Shown: positions 1 to 6,081 of the stretch, piece by piece | Layout of the letters: every line of letters begins with the position of its first letter | Position numbering within the stretch: the stretch's first letter is position 1 | Made by a program: the position numbers and the translations under genes | Notes under the pieces: model-generated | Told to the model about the DNA's origin: nothing | The model's input: the letters and a program-made list of their open reading frames with translations, nothing else | Database searches by the model: none | IMG/VR virus record: IMGVR_UViG_2645727640_000005 | Location: 1 to 6,081 of that record | Source of the DNA: a virus | Lineage: Duplodnaviria; Heunggongvirae; Uroviricota; Caudoviricetes | Length of the DNA stretch: 6,081 nt | Reading direction: 5' to 3' (one strand)

Positions 1-49
1 GCATGACAAAGTCATCGGGCATTATCTGAACATAAAACACTATCAATAA

Positions 50-136
50 GTTGGAGTCATTACCCGCCTTATCGACATACTTAATCAGCCAGGAGTCCCA
101 AAAAATGGATCAAACACTTATGGCTATCCAGACTAA
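50..136 (+). pseudogene. cIII: cIII 3' remnant (C-terminal ~23 codons of lambda-like CIII, no start codon in window)
   Basis: Frame-2 translation of 65..136 gives [23 protein letters not shown], matching the C-terminus of lambda CIII as I recall it. Upstream, the same frame has an in-frame TAA at 47..49 and no ATG, and no frame of 1..64 encodes the CIII N-terminus or amphipathic helix. The kil ATG sits at the cIII 3' end, as in lambda. Confidence 0.4.
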
Positions 137-248
137 ATTCACTATCGCCACTTTTATTGGCGATGAAAAGATGTTTCGTGAAGCCGTCGACGCTTATAAA
201 AAATGGATATTAATGCTGAAACTGAGATCAAGCAAAAGCATTCACTAA
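105..248 (+). CDS. kil: Kil, host cell-division (FtsZ) inhibitor, 47 aa
   Basis: ATG at 105 inside the 51..248 track ORF gives a 47-aa product ([12 protein letters not shown]...[10 protein letters not shown]), the length and sequence I recall for lambda Kil. It sits upstream of and overlaps gam, as in lambda. The track ORF's 5' extension begins at TTG and is probably not used. Confidence 0.8.
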
Positions 249-619
249 CCCCCTTTCCTGTTTTCCTAATCAGCCCGGCATTTCGCGGGCGATATTTTCA
301 CAGCTATTTCAGGAGTTCAGCCATGAACGCTTATTACATTCAGGATCGTCTTGAGGCTCAGAGCTGGGCGCGTCACTACCAGCAGATCGCCCGTGAAGAG
401 AAAGAGGCAGAACTGGCAGACGATATGGAAAAAGGCCTGCCCCAGCACCTGTTTGAATCGCTATGCATCGATCATTTGCAACGCCACGGGGCCAGCAAAA
501 AAGCCATTACCCGTGCGTTTGATGACGATGTTGAGTTTCAGGAGCGCATGGCAGAACACATCCGGTACATGGTTGAAACCATTGCTCACCATCAGGTTGA
601 TATTGATTCAGAGGTATAA
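203..619 (+). CDS. gam: Gam, RecBCD inhibitor (full-length GamL form, 138 aa)
   Basis: 138-aa ORF that matches lambda Gam along its whole length as recalled ([20 protein letters not shown]...[10 protein letters not shown]). An internal ATG at 323 preceded by AGGAG (311..315) corresponds to the short GamS start. Synteny is kil-gam-bet-exo. Confidence 0.95.
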
Positions 620-624
620 AACGG

Positions 625-1410
625 ATGAGTACAGCACTCGCAACGCTGGCAGGGAAGCTGGCTGAACGTGTCGGCATGGATTCTGTCGACCCACAGGAAC
701 TGATCACCACTCTTCGCCAGACGGCATTTAAAGGCGATGCCAGCGATGCGCAGTTCATCGCATTGTTGATCGTCGCCAACCAGTACGGCCTTAATCCGTG
801 GACGAAAGAAATTTACGCCTTCCCTGACAAGCAGAACGGCATCGTTCCGGTGGTGGGCGTTGATGGCTGGTCCCGCATCATCAACGAAAACCAGCAGTTT
901 GACGGCATGGACTTTGAACAGGACAACGAATCCTGCACATGCCGGATTTACCGCAAAGACCGCAATCATCCGATCTGCGTTACCGAGTGGATGGATGAAT
1001 GCCGCCGCGAACCATTCAAAACCCGCGAAGGCAGAGAAATCACCGGACCGTGGCAGTCGCATCCCAAACGGATGTTACGGCATAAAGCCATGATTCAGTG
1101 TGCCCGTCTGGCCTTCGGATTTGCTGGTATCTATGACAAGGATGAAGCCGAGCGCATTGTCGAAAATACTGCATACACTGCAGAACGTCAGCCGGAACGC
1201 GACATCACTCCGGTTAACGATGAAACCATGCAGGAGATTAACACTCTGCTGATCGCCCTGGATAAAACATGGGATGACGACTTATTGCCGCTCTGTTCCC
1301 AGATATTTCGCCGCGACATTCGCGCATCGTCAGAACTGACACAGGCCGAAGCAGTGAAAGCTCTTGGATTCCTGAAACAGAAAGCCACTGAGCAGAAGGT
1401 GGCAGCATGA
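625..1410 (+). CDS. bet: Bet (Red-beta) single-strand annealing protein, 261 aa
   Basis: 261-aa ORF matching lambda Bet as recalled ([35 protein letters not shown]...). GAGG at 611..614 lies upstream of the ATG. Its stop overlaps the exo start in an ATGA junction (1407..1410). Confidence 0.95.
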
Positions 1411-2087
1411 CACCGGACATTATCCTGCAGCGTACCGGGATCGACGTGAGAGCTGTCGAACAGGGGGATGATGCATGGCACAAATTACGGCTCGGCGTCA
1501 TCACCGCTTCAGAAGTTCACAACGTGATAGCAAAGCCCCGCTCAGGAAAAAAGTGGCCTGACATGAAAATGTCCTACTTCCACACCCTGCTGGCTGAGGT
1601 TTGCACCGGTGTGGCTCCGGAAGTTAATGCTAAGGCGCTGGCCTGGGGAAAACAGTACGAGAACGACGCCAGAACCCTGTTTGAATTCACTTCCGGCGTG
1701 AATGTTACTGAATCCCCGATCATCTATCGCGACGAAAGTATGCGCACCGCCTGCTCTCCCGATGGTTTATGCAGTGACGGCAACGGCCTTGAACTGAAAT
1801 GCCCGTTTACCTCCCGGGATTTCATGAAGTTCCGGCTCGGTGGTTTCGAGGCCATAAAATCAGCTTACATGGCCCAGGTGCAGTACAGCATGTGGGTGAC
1901 GCGAAAAGATGCCTGGTACTTTGCCAACTATGACCCGCGTATGAAGCGTGAAGGCCTGCATTATGTCGTGATTGAGCGGAATGAAAAGTACATGGCGAAT
2001 TTTGACGAGATGGTGCCGGAGTTCATCGAAAAAATGGACGTGGCACTGGCTGAAATTGGTTTTGTATTTGGGGAGCAATGGCGATGA
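1407..2087 (+). CDS. exo: Exo (Red-alpha) 5'-3' dsDNA exonuclease, 226 aa
   Basis: 226-aa ORF matching lambda exonuclease as recalled ([40 protein letters not shown]...GEQWR). ATGA overlap with bet, as in lambda. Confidence 0.95.
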
Positions 2088-2245
2088 AGCATCCTCACGA
2101 TAATATCCGGGTAGGCGCGATCACTTTCATCTACTCCGTTACAAAGCGAGGCTGGGTATTTCCCGGCCTTTCTGTTATCAGAAATCCACTGAAAGCACAG
2201 CGGCTGGCTGAGGCGATAAATAATAAACGGGGGCTGTATGACTGA
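2084..2245 (+). CDS. small ORF (53 aa) coupled to exo; positional equivalent of lambda orf60a, with a different 3' end
   Basis: ATG 2084..2086 overlaps the exo stop (ATGA). It translates to [53 protein letters not shown]. Lambda has orf60a in this position with the same 4-nt overlap. The ORF is shorter than 60 codons and its end overlaps the methyltransferase start, consistent with a mosaic junction near 2180..2240. It is below the size cutoff of the ORF track. Confidence 0.45.
2150..2176 (+). terminator. putative intrinsic terminator (tL3-like) downstream of exo
   Basis: Hairpin GGCTGGG (2150..2156), loop TATTT, CCCGGCC (2162..2168), seven pairs including one G-T wobble, followed by the T-rich run TTTCTGTT. 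Lambda is known to have tL3 shortly downstream of exo; identity with tL3 is from position only. Confidence 0.35.
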
Positions 2246-2795
2246 TTTCACCGGAAGCAATACTCCTGCCGAACATCGCGACAGCTGGCGCACACCACCA
2301 GAGATTTTTGCTGCGCTTAATGCAGAGTTCGTTTTTCAACTTGATGCTGCCGCCAGCGAAAAAAACCGACTATGTCGGCTTTTTATCTCACAGGAGCAGA
2401 ACACATTAACCACTTCATGGCCTGAAGCAATGGGATATGCCTCTGGTTATGTCTGGTTGAATCCACCATACAGCAATATTTCCCCTTTTGTGAAAAAGGC
2501 AGCCACTGAAAACAAATTCAGTAGTGTGGGATGTGTAATGTTATTGCCTGCTGACACATCTGTCGGATGGTTTCATGAAGCGATACAAACCGCCAGTGAG
2601 GTCAGATTCATCACGGCAGGACGACTGGCATTTATTAACCCACTCACGGAGAAACCCGTCAGTGGAAATAATAAAGGCTCGATGCTCATTATCTGGCACC
2701 CATACCCCCGTACACACTGCCACTTTACGACCGTTGATCGTGGAGAGTTGATGGCGTTCGGCTCAAGGATTCTTGCCCGTCGGGAGGCTGCATGA
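2238..2795 (+). CDS. orphan phage-type DNA N6-adenine methyltransferase (phage Dam family), 185 aa
   Basis: 185-aa ORF with an N-terminal WRTPPEIF motif, an FQLDAAAS motif and the catalytic NPPY tetrad (WLNPPYSN), the hallmark of the small phage Dam methyltransferase family. GGGGG lies 4 nt upstream of the ATG. No restriction endonuclease partner is visible in the window. Confidence 0.85.
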   Translation: MTDFTGSNTPAEHRDSWRTPPEIFAALNAEFVFQLDAAASEKNRLCRLFISQEQNTLTTSWPEAMGYASGYVWLNPPYSNISPFVKKAATENKFSSVGCVMLLPADTSVGWFHEAIQTASEVRFITAGRLAFINPLTEKPVSGNNKGSMLIIWHPYPRTHCHFTTVDRGELMAFGSRILARREAA

Positions 2796-2875
2796 CAACC
2801 ACGGAATGCATTTTTCTGGCAGCGGGCTTCATATTCTGTGTGCTTATGCTTGCCGATATGGGACTTGTTCAATGA
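2792..2875 (+). CDS. possible 27-aa hydrophobic peptide, start and stop both in ATGA overlaps
   Basis: ATG 2792..2794 overlaps the methyltransferase stop (TGA 2793..2795). The ORF encodes MTTTECIFLAAGFIFCVLMLADMGLVQ and its TGA (2873..2875) overlaps the ATG (2872..2874) of the next gene. The hydrophobic core could form one transmembrane helix. It is below the track cutoff and could be chance. Confidence 0.3.
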   Translation: MTTTECIFLAAGFIFCVLMLADMGLVQ

Positions 2876-3087
2876 CACCTCAGCAGGAAAACGCCCTTCG
2901 CAGCATTGCCCGTCAGGCTAATTCTGAAATCAAAAAAGCCAGACAGCAGTTTCCGGATAAAAACGTCGATGACATTTGCCGTAGCGTACTGAAGAAGCAC
3001 CGCGAAACGGTAACGCTGATGGGATTCACACCGACTCACTTAAGTCTGGCAATCGGTATGTTAAACGGCGTCTTTAAGGAACGGTGA
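2872..3087 (+). CDS. hypothetical protein, 71 aa
   Basis: Inside the 2773..3087 track ORF. ATG 2872 gives MTPQQENALRSIARQANSEIKKARQQ...GVFKER. An alternative ATG at 2806 would give 93 aa, and the track start at 2773 is TTG. No motif recognised. The start choice is uncertain. Confidence 0.5.
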   Translation: MTPQQENALRSIARQANSEIKKARQQFPDKNVDDICRSVLKKHRETVTLMGFTPTHLSLAIGMLNGVFKER

Positions 3088-3107
3088 ACATGAAAAGCAA
3101 AATCATC

Positions 3108-3133
3108 AGGGAGCTACAGGCTCCTTTTTTATT
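3108..3133 (+). terminator. putative intrinsic terminator or attenuator between genes
   Basis: GGAGC (3110..3114), loop TACAG, GCTCC (3120..3124), immediately followed by TTTTTT (3125..3130). The stem is short, 5 bp extendable to 7 with a G-T pair. It lies within a possible 29-aa ORF (3090..3179). Confidence 0.4.
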
Positions 3134-3185
3134 ATTCGCATTCACCCTCAAGCGTATTAACCAACAATTCAGGGATTAATGAAAG

Positions 3186-3407
3186 ATGGCAGATATCATT
3201 GATTCAGCATCAGAAATTGAAGAATTACAGCGCAATACAGCAATAAAAATGCGTCGCCTGAACTACCAGACTGTATCCGCAACTCATTGTTGTGAGTGTG
3301 GCGATCCGATAGATGAACGAAGACGCCTGGCAGTTCAGGGTTGTCGGACTTGTGCAAGTTGCCAGGAGGATCTGGAGCTTATCAGTAAACAGAGAGGTTC
3401 GAAGTGA
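3186..3407 (+). CDS. TraR/DksA-family C4 zinc-finger protein, 73 aa
   Basis: Cys at residues 35, 38, 56 and 59 give C-x2-C-x17-C-x2-C with a GDPIDERRR segment between the pairs, the pattern of the phage and plasmid TraR/DksA zinc-finger family. Its stop overlaps the GTG start of the next gene. Confidence 0.7.
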   Translation: MADIIDSASEIEELQRNTAIKMRRLNYQTVSATHCCECGDPIDERRRLAVQGCRTCASCQEDLELISKQRGSK

Positions 3408-4090
3408 GCGAAATTAATTATCAGGCACTGCGTGAAAAGGCAGAGAAAGCAACTAAAGGAAGCTACATCGTAGGGCATACATCTGTTAACCAGCACGGCA
3501 ATTTAACAGGAGTTTTTGTTTGCCAAAAATGGAAAGGAGAACCCGGTGGTGTGATTGCGGAATGTCATGTTAACTGCCTGGTTGAAACAGATGTTCAGGC
3601 TTATGCAAACGCTGAATTTATTGCTGCTTTTAATCCAAATGTTGCGCTGGCACTACTGGATGAACGGGAAAGAAACCAGCAATACATCAAACGCCGCGAC
3701 CAGGAGAACGAGGAGATTGCGCTTACGGTTGGGAAGCTGCGCGTTGAGCTGGAAGCCGCAGAGAAGCGCAACGCAAAATTACAAAGCGAGAATGCATACA
3801 TCCGCAACCGGTACAAAGAACTGGACCTGTTAATCGGGAAAAACATTCTGGTCATGCAGGCTGCCATTATCGAATGGCAATCGACTGGCGACGCTAAAAG
3901 CGGACTGGCATGGATTTATAACACACTGTTTGGCCCAGGCGAATTGCCGGACGAATCTGAGAAAGATGCTCAGGCCTACTTTAATCGCAAATATGCACCG
4001 ATTGACGAAAAGCTTATGGCGCTTCACAAGTGGTTTTGGGAACAAAGTGAAGCCAAGCGCGCCGCTGGCATTCGCATCAAAGGAGAGTGA
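3404..4090 (+). CDS. Ead/Ea22-like coiled-coil protein, 228 aa
   Basis: GTG start at 3404 with AGAGAGG 6 nt upstream. The N-terminus (INYQALREKAEKATKGS) and the NAEFIAAFNPNVALALLDE segment resemble the conserved motifs of prophage Ead/Ea22-like proteins as I recall them. The central region (LTVGKLRVELEAAEKRNAKLQSENAYIRNRYKELD) is a heptad-like coiled coil. Confidence 0.6.
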   Translation: MSEINYQALREKAEKATKGSYIVGHTSVNQHGNLTGVFVCQKWKGEPGGVIAECHVNCLVETDVQAYANAEFIAAFNPNVALALLDERERNQQYIKRRDQENEEIALTVGKLRVELEAAEKRNAKLQSENAYIRNRYKELDLLIGKNILVMQAAIIEWQSTGDAKSGLAWIYNTLFGPGELPDESEKDAQAYFNRKYAPIDEKLMALHKWFWEQSEAKRAAGIRIKGE

Positions 4091-4091
4091 G

Positions 4092-4607
4092 ATGGCGTTA
4101 ACACACCGAGAACTCTGTCAGATTGCGTACAAGTTCCTTAAGCGCAACGGGTTCAAGGTTTGCTTTCATGACCGCTTTATAGCCGTAACCAGTACCGGAG
4201 AACAGCCAGATGCTATGGGATTCAGAAATTCAGCATCATGCCTGATAGAGGCGAAATGTTCTCGTGCTGACTTGTTGGCAGATAGAAAAAAGCGTTTTCG
4301 TAAAAATCCGTCTCTTGGAATGGGAGACTGGCGATTCTTTATTAGTGAGCCGGGAACTATTTCAATTGAGGATTTACCACCTGGCTGGGGATTACTTCAC
4401 GTTGTTAACGGAAGAGTACGGAAAGTACATGGATGGCCCAAGGGGAATTGCTGTTGGGGTAACCCTGAGGATAAACCTTTTATTGGGAATAAGCAGGTTG
4501 AATGCGATTACATGTTGTCTGCCTTAAGGCGCATGGAGTTGAGAGGGCACCTTAATGAAATATATGACGGTGTAATTGTTAATAAGAAAGAAGGAAACGC
4601 GGCATGA
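4092..4607 (+). CDS. hypothetical protein with PD-(D/E)xK nuclease-like motif, 171 aa
   Basis: ATG 4092 with GGAG 6 nt upstream. The track ORF 3930..4607 extends 5' in another frame of the upstream gene and is not used. The N-terminal 60 aa have a helix, two strands, PD at residue 40 and hhEAK at 53-55 (FIAVTSTGEQPD...SCLIEAK), the canonical PD-(D/E)xK arrangement. The C-terminal 100 aa are Trp/Cys-rich (GNCCWGNPED, VECDY) and not recognised. A nuclease function is inferred from the motif only. Confidence 0.55.
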   Translation: MALTHRELCQIAYKFLKRNGFKVCFHDRFIAVTSTGEQPDAMGFRNSASCLIEAKCSRADLLADRKKRFRKNPSLGMGDWRFFISEPGTISIEDLPPGWGLLHVVNGRVRKVHGWPKGNCCWGNPEDKPFIGNKQVECDYMLSALRRMELRGHLNEIYDGVIVNKKEGNAA

Positions 4608-5491
4608 TCACTATTACCAAAGGGCGACTGCTGACAATCAAACAGTGGCGCGAAACATACGGACCTGGTAGCAACGTTGTACTGCCAGCAGAAGAAGCGG
4701 AAGAACTGGCACGAATTGCTCTGGCAGCGCTGGAAGCCGAGCCGATAGGTTTCCGTTGCAGGCGCAATGATAACCTTGGTGATTGGAGTTACGTATATCA
4801 TCGAGAGCCAGATGATTTTGAGCGCAAACATTTAGTGATAGAGGGCATTTACGCCGCCCCTCCAGCACCAGTAGTACCGGAAGAAAAACCAATGCCTAAT
4901 CCTCTTAGCATGTACGCGGTTGATGCTGTTGCCGCTATTGCAGAGGTGAGAGGCTGGAACGCCTGCCGTGCCGCTATGCTTCAGTCCGGAAACTTTCGGG
5001 AAAACAAGAATTCGTCAACCAATAATTTTCGGGAAATCGCGGAAACGTCAACCAACTATCCGGTAATTCCTAGTGAGGTGTTGTCCGCAATCCTGAAGGT
5101 TGCCAAGATTCGTGCCGATGTCGATGATTTTGACGGTGACAGGCGAGGTATCGGTGATTGTCTGGATGAGGCTGAGCAAGAGCTTATCGTTACCATTAAC
5201 AAATATGCCAGTCAGTTGGCAGCAGAACCTATAGCGCCTAATGACGTTCGAGAGCAGACAGCCATTCCACAAGTTCCGGTGACTCCGGATGGTTGGATAA
5301 GCTGTAGTGAGCGAATGCCGAATACCAAAACAGCCGTTCTTGTTGCCGTGGAGTTTGACAGGAAAGGTGACTGGCGAATGAAATGGGCTACTTACATCCC
5401 GGGGCATCCTGACGCTAATGATGGGTGGATAATTCCTGGTGCGTCGTGGAAACCGTCACACTGGATGCCGCTACCAGAGCCTCCACTTTGA
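4604..5491 (+). CDS. DUF551-type prophage protein, 295 aa, with internal tandem repeat
   Basis: ATG 4604 overlaps the upstream stop (ATGA) and AAGGAA lies 7 nt upstream. The C-terminal ~70 aa (WISCSERMPNTKTAVLVAVEF...GWIIPGASWKPSHWMPLPEPP) match the DUF551 signature of prophage proteins as I recall it. The N-terminal half is acidic and helical. Confidence 0.75.
   Translation: MITITKGRLLTIKQWRETYGPGSNVVLPAEEAEELARIALAALEAEPIGFRCRRNDNLGDWSYVYHREPDDFERKHLVIEGIYAAPPAPVVPEEKPMPNPLSMYAVDAVAAIAEVRGWNACRAAMLQSGNFRENKNSSTNNFREIAETSTNYPVIPSEVLSAILKVAKIRADVDDFDGDRRGIGDCLDEAEQELIVTINKYASQLAAEPIAPNDVREQTAIPQVPVTPDGWISCSERMPNTKTAVLVAVEFDRKGDWRMKWATYIPGHPDANDGWIIPGASWKPSHWMPLPEPPL
4991..5056 (+). repeat. 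imperfect 33-bp tandem direct repeat (2 copies) in frame within the DUF551 gene
   Basis: Copy 1 (4991..5023) AACTTTCGGGAAAACAAGAATTCGTCAACCAAT and copy 2 (5024..5056) AATTTTCGGGAAATCGCGGAAACGTCAACCAAC match at 25 of 33 positions. They encode NFRENKNSSTN and NFREIAETSTN. Confidence 0.8.
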
Positions 5492-5587
5492 AAGCGAAGC
5501 TTATACATATCTTTTACATCAGCAATCTATTGTTAATCTCCAATCAATGTTACGTTGTCATCTCACTCATGCTTTGGAGTTAGTGAT

Positions 5588-5767
5588 ATGTCTTGTCCAA
5601 AATGCGGTTCTGGAAATATTGCAAAAGAAAAAACAATGCGTGGATGGTCTGGTGATTATGTGTGCTGCGATTGCGGATACAACGACTCTAAAGACGCATT
5701 TGGAGAGCGTGGTAAAAACGAGTTTGTCAAAATTAATAAAGAACGCGAAGGCAACGAAAAAAGCTAA
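5588..5767 (+). CDS. small zinc-ribbon protein, 59 aa
   Basis: ATG 5588 with GGAG (5575..5578) upstream. The track start at 5555 is TTG. Cys at residues 3, 6, 26 and 29 give C-x2-C-x19-C-x2-C, and the C-terminus is Lys/Glu-rich. Codon usage is AT-rich. It is followed by a terminator and sits immediately upstream of xis, in the position of lambda's small unnamed ORF and ea8.5. Confidence 0.55.
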   Translation: MSCPKCGSGNIAKEKTMRGWSGDYVCCDCGYNDSKDAFGERGKNEFVKINKEREGNEKS

Positions 5768-5830
5768 TTTATTATTCATATATGAAAACAATGTAACCAA
5801 TATTCGAATTGAAGAACTGAAAGAACACCA

Positions 5831-5852
5831 AGCCGCCTGATGGCGGTTTTTT
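5831..5852 (+). terminator. putative intrinsic terminator upstream of xis
   Basis: CCGCC (5833..5837), loop TGAT, GGCGG (5842..5846), extendable by A-T and G-T pairs, followed by TTTTTT (5847..5852). Confidence 0.5.
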
Positions 5853-5879
5853 CTTGCGTGTAATTGCGGAGACTTTGCG

Positions 5880-6081
5880 ATGTACTTGACACTTCAGGAG
5901 TGGAACGCTCGCCAGCGACGCCCAAGAAGCCTTGAAACAGTTCGTCGATGGGTGCGCGAATGCAGGATATTCCCTCCTCCGGTTAAGGATGGCAGAGAGT
6001 ATCTGTTCCACGAATCAGCGGTAAAGGTTGACTTAAATCGACCAGTAACAGGTAGCCTTTTGAAGAGGATCAGAAATGGGA
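5880..6081 (+). CDS. xis: Xis excisionase, 5' partial (first 67 codons; runs off window end)
   Basis: ATG 5880 with GGAG 8 nt upstream. Translation MYLTLQEWNARQRRPRSLETVRRWVRECRIFPPPVKDGREYLFHESAVKVDLNRPVTGSLLKRIRNG matches lambda Xis (72 aa) as recalled. It is absent from the ORF track because no stop lies within the window. Confidence 0.9.
   Translation, partial: MYLTLQEWNARQRRPRSLETVRRWVRECRIFPPPVKDGREYLFHESAVKVDLNRPVTGSLLKRIRNG

Follow-up and report, generated by a model that had tools for sequence, protein, structure and literature searches.

Four tightly joined genes from a lambda-type prophage's exo-xis region are probably independently assorting modules

The stretch of DNA analysed here, referred to as the window, comprises the 6,081 nucleotides (nt) of IMG/VR virus record IMGVR_UViG_2645727640_000005 (Caudoviricetes) and is identical to bases 1-6081 of the IMG/VR contig IMGVR_UViG_2534681935_000037 (locus L091). 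It is the leftward early (pL) operon of a lambda-type prophage. Within its exo-xis region, four consecutive open reading frames (ORFs), here called genes 1 to 4, lie between exo and xis, on the + strand shared by bet, exo and xis (Table 1). An earlier note, made from the sequence alone, had described these genes as encoding a TraR-like zinc finger, an Ea22-like, a PD-(D/E)xK-like and a DUF551 protein, and had proposed that they form one accessory unit whose translational coupling fixes the stoichiometry of its products. The coordinates of the four ORFs, their placement among early-expressed accessory cargo and all four family assignments held up in our analysis; the single unit did not. Instead, we consider it highly probable that genes 1-4 are the distal part of a pL operon of independently assorting modules, which share one polycistronic message and do not form a dedicated four-part system. 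Genes 1 and 2 would be the last members of the conserved exo-xis block, and genes 3 and 4 variable cargo behind them.

Co-occurrence and junctions of the four genes

A co-occurrence survey had been proposed together with the four-gene unit, and was carried out here. Among 5,426 complete Escherichia coli genomes, with presence defined as at least 80% coverage, gene 1 was found in 3,288 (4,692 places, 25 of them on plasmids) and gene 3 in 910 (about 17%; 1,297 places, 248 on plasmids), whereas the whole block was found in just 14. In a phage collection, some part of the block is matched by 541 records, of which only 11 reach a coverage of at least 80%; at about 97% identity, the complete block occurs in 11 Stx1a phage records and the 14 E. 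coli genomes. In IMG/VR loci with enough flanking sequence, gene 3 lies downstream of gene 1 in 17 of 66 cases (26%) and all parts of the block are present in two, while loci anchored on gene 3 have gene 1 upstream in 8 of 68 cases (12%) and a lambda-type exo in one. A DUF551-type gene is found in 35 of the 66 gene-1 loci, compared with the 17 that carry gene 3. The four genes thus occur independently of each other, which contradicts the conserved linkage expected of a unit. Neither conserved co-occurrence nor a conserved gene order across lineages, as a dedicated multi-gene system would have, was seen in the surveyed genomes, and profile searches, including PADLOC, gave no credible match to a known defence system among the components.

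The only strong linkage in the block joins orf73 (gene 1) to ea22 (gene 2), exactly as in lambda. Of the 76 gene-1 loci that extend far enough downstream, 74 have an ORF whose start overlaps the end of gene 1 by 4 nt, and these overlapping ORFs, which fall into 16 clusters, all carry Ea22-like sequence.

The junctions from which the unit had been deduced are real. Both reading and recomputing the sequence gave GTGA at 3404-3407, TGA (4088-4090) and ATG (4092-4094) separated by a single g, and ATGA at 4604-4607, and every gene is preceded by its own Shine-Dalgarno site (AGGGA at 3171-3175, GAGAGG at 3392-3397, AGGAG at 4081-4085 and AAGGA at 4591-4595). However, the same style of junction links all of the roughly 12 genes of the operon. 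From bet to gene 4, the stop-to-start distances are 5, -4, -10, -8, -4, -4, 2, 6, -4, 1 and -4 nt, two of which, within 2792-3087, hinge on an ambiguous gene call, and every join among the upstream genes at 1407-3179 is an overlap or a gap of at most 6 nt. Genes 1-4 are joined to one another no more tightly than to the eight genes preceding them, and since tight junctions run throughout, they do not delimit a four-gene unit. Overlapping stop and start codons are a general packing style of this operon and its cassettes, and count as evidence for co-expression, not for a complex.

A dedicated accessory system with fixed stoichiometry, serving anti-defence, host takeover or exclusion, would fit the co-orientation of four early genes, their genuine junctions and ribosome-binding sites, and the recurrence of the complete block in Stx1a phages and E. 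coli. It is set against a junction style that persists with dozens of unrelated partners, the rarity of the block relative to its single genes and the conditional co-occurrence given above. Furthermore, no co-occurrence was seen in other genera or in the 51 other species surveyed, the lambda homologue of gene 1 works alone (PMC9239242), and PADLOC offered no credible system. We regard such a four-gene system as very improbable.

The gene 3 cassette and its neighbours

The clearest case of an assorting module is gene 3. As judged from sequence comparison, it is a single-gene cassette that brings along a ribosome-binding site of its own, the stop codon of its upstream partner and the first ~45 codons of its downstream partner. 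In 80 IMG/VR loci its neighbours fall into 25 upstream and 36 downstream clusters; the commonest immediate upstream neighbour is an unrelated 62-residue ORF (33 of 80), and the downstream clusters have only parts of the gene 4 protein in common. With these changing partners, the upstream stop lies 1 nt before the gene 3 ATG in 74 of 77 loci, and the downstream start overlaps gene 3 by 4 nt in 74 of 76. Base-by-base comparison locates the ends of the cassette. Most positions of the ~20 nt preceding the ATG (AAAGGAGAGTGAnATG) are 96-100% conserved in 79 loci, and past about -25 nt identity is at chance level; on the other side, identity stays at ~75% for ~130 nt and then collapses. The cassette ends carry the junctions, and the apparent coupling is therefore a property of these ends.

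Outside the exo-xis region, relatives of gene 3 occupy a variety of slots. A copy in Klebsiella, 75% identical, sits in the nin region, with replication genes on one side and NinB, NinG and Q on the other; its upstream neighbours vary, and a pyrophosphohydrolase, a 137-residue ORF or a DUF551 protein follows. The copy in Morganella (61% identical) is found between a 131-residue ORF, located after NinB, and NinF/NinG, and in phage P7, a P1-type plasmid prophage, gene 3 belongs to the C1-controlled hea operon. A broader survey, limited to one genome per species (52 loci, 52 species), extended the range to Shewanella, Halomonadaceae, Stenotrophomonas, Bacteroidota and one metagenome-derived Bacillota genome. 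The commonest annotated neighbours across species are DNA methyltransferases, NinB, NinG, RusA and conjugative transfer proteins, and neighbours of the TraV, TraC and TraG type (loci L172-L223) place the family in conjugative elements as well. The neighbour families listed for gene 3 in the 51 other species do not include the TraR zinc finger.

The setting in which gene 3 is most often found in E. coli (L004:2791-5000) contains three consecutive Ea22-like ORFs of 215, 195 and 148 residues, the latter two with the common N-terminus VSKIDYQxLRE, followed by three small basic ORFs of 58, 58 and 62 residues, the last two of which start with MKNRKAK. Nearly all of these ORFs overlap by 4 nt, and the array looks like the product of repeated cassette insertion.

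Several points weigh against independent assortment or temper it. The IMG/VR samples consist of the 80 best matches to each query protein, which are at least 96-97% identical to it and not independent of each other. In these close E. coli relatives, an Ea22-type N-domain is encoded within 1.5 kb upstream of gene 3 in 50 of 68 loci, and a gene-4-like N-terminus downstream of it in 47 of 68. P7 carries a trio of Ea22-like gene, gene 3 and gene-4-like gene, without TraR, and some Klebsiella nin copies again have an Ead_Ea22-like gene upstream (a weak match in 2 of 6 places) and a DUF551 gene downstream (within two genes in 4 of 6). Moreover, the nuclease activity and substrate of gene 3 are predictions from fold and motif only.

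These linkages, together with database ORFs in which an Ea22 N-terminus is fused to gene 3 (P0122) or gene 3 to a pyrophosphohydrolase (P0208), would be expected if gene 3 formed a smaller module with an upstream Ea22-type gene, a downstream DUF551-type gene or both, for example as a nuclease whose targeting or regulation depends on its neighbours, with orf73 unrelated to it. We find this unlikely in view of the 25 upstream clusters headed by an unrelated ORF, and of the Morganella copies, which have neither family adjacent. Downstream, gene 3 is accompanied by just the first ~45 codons, as hitch-hiking predicts, and the linkage to gene-4-like N-termini is explained by this ~130-nt segment. 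Upstream, the linkage to Ea22 fails under wider sampling: in the one-per-species survey, Ead_Ea22 accounts for 6 of 96 upstream ORFs, and DUF551 for 4 of 96 downstream. Both families are very common in such slots regardless of gene 3, as is evident for DUF551 from the gene-1 loci. The trio had been taken up as a possible real module on account of P7 and Klebsiella, and was downgraded by the species survey and the cassette boundaries.

Fold, family and possible activity of gene 3

At the level of predicted fold and motif, gene 3 is a stand-alone PD-(D/E)xK-fold protein, as structure comparison and conserved motif residues confirmed. Searches of Pfam, NCBIfam, PADLOC and PDB sequences with gene 3 yielded nothing significant, and the family was resolved by structure comparison only. 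An alignment of 41 homologues and an AlphaFold2 model (pLDDT 85.6, pTM 0.82) were made, and the model has the restriction-endonuclease-like alpha/beta core fold. The putative catalytic residues E37, D40, E53 and K55 are invariant or nearly so across the 41 closer homologues; in a set of 48 sequences with 34-56% identity, D40 is invariant and the other three are at least 90% conserved. A longer form of gene 3, starting from TTG at 3930, was rejected, as conservation begins at residue 3-5 of the 171-residue form and the DNA is unrelated beyond -25 nt.

The best structural match of gene 3 is not a restriction enzyme but the DUF1052/MmcB-like protein 3dnx (SPO1766). 3dnx belongs to DUF1052 (PF06319), which is counted among the PD-(D/E)xK families (Steczkiewicz et al. 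2012, PMC3424549); the current Pfam name of PF06319 is MmcB-like. At the sequence level, the PF06319 model matched neither gene 3 nor any of the 41 aligned members at E<=1, and one distant relative reached a sub-threshold E of 0.005 (16.9 bits against a cutoff of 22), while the gene 3 profile gave an E of 0.28 against the sequence of 3dnx. The model of the archaeal Holliday junction resolvase Hjc (PF01870) did not match gene 3; 17 of the 41 relatives gave sub-threshold matches, with a best E of 0.016. Gene 3 differs from DUF1052/MmcB-like proteins in having ~40 extra C-terminal residues and in scoring below the Pfam model cutoff, and whereas DUF1052 genes are mostly chromosomal in alpha-proteobacteria, gene 3 is cargo of phages and plasmids.

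Judged by fold and motif, gene 3 may encode a Mg2+-dependent DNA endonuclease that acts alone. Given its affinity to MmcB-like and Hjc-like proteins, and with NinB, NinG and RusA as frequent neighbours, branched or damaged DNA appears the most likely substrate within the cassette explanation, although we hold this assignment with somewhat less than even confidence. A different role is conceivable, in which gene 3 is the partner or antagonist of DNA methylation, that is, a methylation-sensitive or restriction-like nuclease paired with nearby orphan methyltransferases, including the Dam-type enzyme encoded at 2238-2795 in the same operon. Many of its structural matches are indeed restriction endonucleases (SdaI, PaqCI, NgoMIV, BspD6I), and methyltransferases of four Pfam families are its commonest annotated neighbours across species (N6_N4_Mtase 7, Dam 3, C5 3 and D12 1, together 14 of 192 neighbour ORFs). 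Yet they flank gene 3 in a minority of loci only and are common in phage early regions anyway, and the best structural match points to DUF1052/MmcB-like proteins. In the window, moreover, gene 3 and the Dam gene are separated by 1.3 kb and several genes, and most close relatives lack this Dam gene nearby (found in 2 of 80 gene-1 loci and 0 of 80 gene-3 loci). A methylation-linked role is improbable on this evidence.

Among longer database ORFs, the gene 3 domain is also found linked to a TniB-like ATPase (P0137), in addition to the dATP/dGTP pyrophosphohydrolase and the Ea22 N-terminus mentioned above. These larger relatives look like read-throughs into neighbours or rare fusions, and they yielded no consistent hint of function.

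The gene 3 family comprises 3,245 clusters at 50% identity. We tentatively suggest that it defines a large family of stand-alone, MmcB/DUF1052-like PD-(D/E)xK nucleases, which has neither a Pfam model nor a name and whose members possibly act as early nucleases. In this tentative proposal, the gene would be a self-contained mobile cassette, often beside orphan DNA methyltransferases, that moves among the exo-xis and nin slots of lambdoid phages, plasmid prophages of the P1 type and conjugative elements, in a range reaching from Proteobacteria to Bacteroidota.

Genes 1, 2 and 4 in the exo-xis frame

Gene 1 is, on sequence grounds, the orthologue of lambda Orf73, a C4 zinc-finger protein of the TraR/DksA family. 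It matches PF01258 (37.8 bits against a cutoff of 24.9, 1.9e-9), phrog_54 (6e-26) and the TraR chains of the RNA polymerase complexes 5w1s and 6n57, while it falls slightly below the cutoff of the narrower TIGR02419 model (55.1 against 59.7). Sixty-nine of its 73 residues (95%) are identical to the lambda reading frame; the differences (Y27H, T29A, V30I and A49V, in lambda numbering) leave the cysteines unaffected, and neighbours and 4-nt ea22 overlap are the same as in lambda. Like F-plasmid TraR and lambda Orf73, the protein has 73 residues, a C4 zinc finger and an acidic N-terminal tip (D3, D6). Lambda Orf73, like TraR, acts directly on RNA polymerase, shutting down promoters of ribosomal RNA (rRNA) and ribosomal-protein genes without ppGpp; it slows host growth and raises phage yield, or burst size, about 4-fold (Gourse and colleagues, PMC9239242). 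By analogy to this nearly identical protein, gene 1 would bind in the secondary channel of RNA polymerase and regulate rRNA promoters.

Gene 2 appears from its sequence to be a mosaic variant of ea22, with an Ead/Ea22 N-terminal and coiled-coil region joined to a non-lambda C-terminal domain (residues ~116-228). Residues 2-130 match PF13935 (Ead_Ea22; 5.4e-35, 121.4 bits against a cutoff of 27); whole lambda Ea22 gives a weak alignment (42%) with residues ~1-132, and a search with lambda Ea22 segments gave 66% identity at residues 72-132. That search found no C-terminal match, and gene 2 has no domain of the lambda type whose nuclear magnetic resonance structure was described by Goddard et al. 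(2024); PDB sequences contained no relatives of gene 2. Ea22 genes are known to be mosaic, with exchangeable C-terminal domains (Goddard et al., PMC10834534), and the C-terminal domain of gene 2 fits the published Stx-type variants with other such domains; its homologues are all named Ead/Ea22-like. Ea22 homologues of lambda and Stx phages form a tetrameric coiled coil and bias towards lysogeny via a host partner, and functional studies attribute pro-lysogenic effects to both orf73 and ea22.

The PADLOC model PDLC02890 ('DpdH') matches residues 116-228 of gene 2 (3749-4087) at 4e-37. We rejected a link to this defence protein, as a protein search with the C-terminal domain gave only prophage Ead/Ea22-like proteins; the model matched neither lambda Ea22 nor P7 Upf88.3, and a literature search on DpdH returned nothing relevant. 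Prophage genes probably served to build the model or contaminate it. A homologue of the domain in NCBI, 97% identical (P0280), bears the old phenotype-based name 'enterohemolysin 2'.

Gene 4 is, by sequence, a chimera of three segments, the first ~45 codons that travel with gene 3, a variable middle and a DUF551 end (PF04448, residues 230-294; 6.1e-21, 75.5 bits against a cutoff of 22). Its N-terminal, middle and C-terminal parts match separate PHROGs, DNA identity falls ~130 nt into the gene, and its last ~210 nt are missing from the nearest phages. No relatives were found among PDB sequences. DUF551 has been called a 'portable domain' (PMC10834534), and the DUF551 protein YfdS of prophage CPS-53 contributes to an over-expression phenotype that inhibits host replication initiation (PMC4776307). 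In the closest complete E. coli genome (NZ_CP148435.1, 4193957-4196346, locus L002), which is 96.8% identical over the whole block and where the block adjoins torS, gene 3 and the DUF551 gene are annotated as frameshifted or fragmented pseudogenes, suggesting that the cargo has decayed in at least one lineage.

Table 1. Features of the window, in operon order
Feature	Position	Strand	Remarks
kil, gam	upstream of bet	+	gam 98% identical to lambda
bet	625-1410	+	99.6% identical to lambda
exo	1407-2087	+	98% identical to lambda
DUF1317/orf60a-like gene	2078-2245	+	orf60a, 94% versus lambda
Dam-type N6-adenine methyltransferase	2238-2795	+	PF05869, 2.3e-56
orf61-like reading frames	2792-3087	+	gene call ambiguous
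29-residue ORF	3090-3179	+	100% identical to lambda
Terminator-like hairpin	3108-3126	+	8 bp stem and T-run (pattern scan); inside the 29-residue ORF, directly upstream of gene 1
Gene 1 (orf73)	3186-3407	+	73 residues
Gene 2 (ea22 variant)	3404-4090	+	228 residues, GTG start
Left end of gene 3 cassette	4067-4091	+	Shine-Dalgarno AAAGGAGAG, with final codons and stop of the upstream gene
Gene 3 (PD-(D/E)xK-fold, predicted)	4092-4607	+	171 residues
Gene 4 (DUF551)	4604-5491	+	295 residues
Zinc-ribbon 'Eag'-type gene	5588-5767	+	59 residues; 'Eag protein' in the annotation of the closest E. coli genome
Strong terminator-like hairpin	5830-5849	+	pattern scan; between zinc-ribbon gene and xis
xis	from 5880	+	91% match to lambda; marker translated out of frame, so it marks the DNA only

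The region as a whole is of a known kind, the lambdoid exo-xis region. It has the same position and lies on the same pL strand as its counterparts in lambda (orf60a-orf63-orf61-orf73-ea22, ea8.5, orf55) and in the Stx phages Phi24B, 933W and P27, and it has in common with lambda orf60a, an orf61-like frame, orf73 (95%), an Ea22-family gene that overlaps orf73 by 4 nt, and a stretch of variable genes from ea22 to xis. Lambda orf63 had no match anywhere in the window; the Dam gene occupies its slot, flanked by orf60a and orf61. Further differences from lambda concern the C-terminal domain of Ea22 and the replacement of ea8.5 and orf55 by the PD-(D/E)xK gene, the DUF551 gene and the Eag-type zinc ribbon. 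A conserved exo-xis block that ends in orf73-ea22 and is followed by a variable gene set has been published (PMC8614690; PMC10834534). The earlier note's view that no described system has this composition thus stands as far as the exact mosaic is concerned, which is rare, but not for the layout, which is published, nor for Orf73, which has been characterised.

Multi-gene early prophage segments with some likeness to genes 1-4 are the yfdQ-yfdR-yfdS-yfdT set of CPS-53 and lambda orf73-ea22-ea8.5-orf55, both of which inhibit host replication initiation upon over-expression; for the lambda segment this link goes back to Sergueev et al. (2002), as cited in PMC9239242. The likeness consists in the DUF551 domain of YfdS and in the orf73-ea22 start of the lambda segment. 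The CPS-53 set differs in its HD-domain protein YfdR and in DUF2302, and no homologue of gene 3 has been described there. In both cases, subsets of the genes suffice for the effect.

Two further details concern other parts of the operon. The segment 2792-3087 can be read either as a 28-residue hydrophobic ORF (2792-2875), with a good Shine-Dalgarno site and an ATGA overlap at each end, plus a 71-residue ORF, or as one 93-residue orf61-like ORF from the ATG at 2806; residues 6-56 of lambda orf61 align to 2791-2943, beyond which the lambda frame is shifted relative to the window. Towards xis, the 59-residue zinc-ribbon protein gave a sub-threshold match to the Lar restriction-alleviation model (23.4 bits, E 7e-5; cutoff 28.6 bits), and 5778-5837 matches the last 20 residues of lambda orf55 (80%), of which it is a remnant.

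By comparison with lambda, pL transcription after induction or infection, from a promoter outside the window, would pass the 3108-3126 hairpin under N antitermination, on which the distal exo-xis genes may depend, and would produce one long message from which each ORF initiates at its own ribosome-binding site. Orf73 would then reprogram the host RNA polymerase, as its lambda counterpart does, and the Ea22 variant, presumably a coiled-coil tetramer like its homologues, would engage a host factor through its variant C-terminal domain and bias the phage towards lysogeny. The product of gene 3 would act on its own as a small Mg2+-dependent endonuclease, and gene 4 would contribute a mosaic protein with the portable DUF551 domain at its end.

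The element fits the published frame of a conserved orf73-ea22 pair followed by variable cargo, which is of relevance to Stx prophages, in which induction is tuned by exo-xis genes. Since cassettes bring their junctions with them and shuffle freely, tight junctions of the ATGA type in a lambdoid early operon should not be taken as a sign of a multi-protein system. Research value lies only in the unnamed nuclease-fold family of gene 3, a gene carried by about 17% of complete E. coli genomes and also found far outside them; if our tentative view of this family is true, gene 3 could serve in conflicts between mobile elements or in the processing of recombination and replication intermediates.

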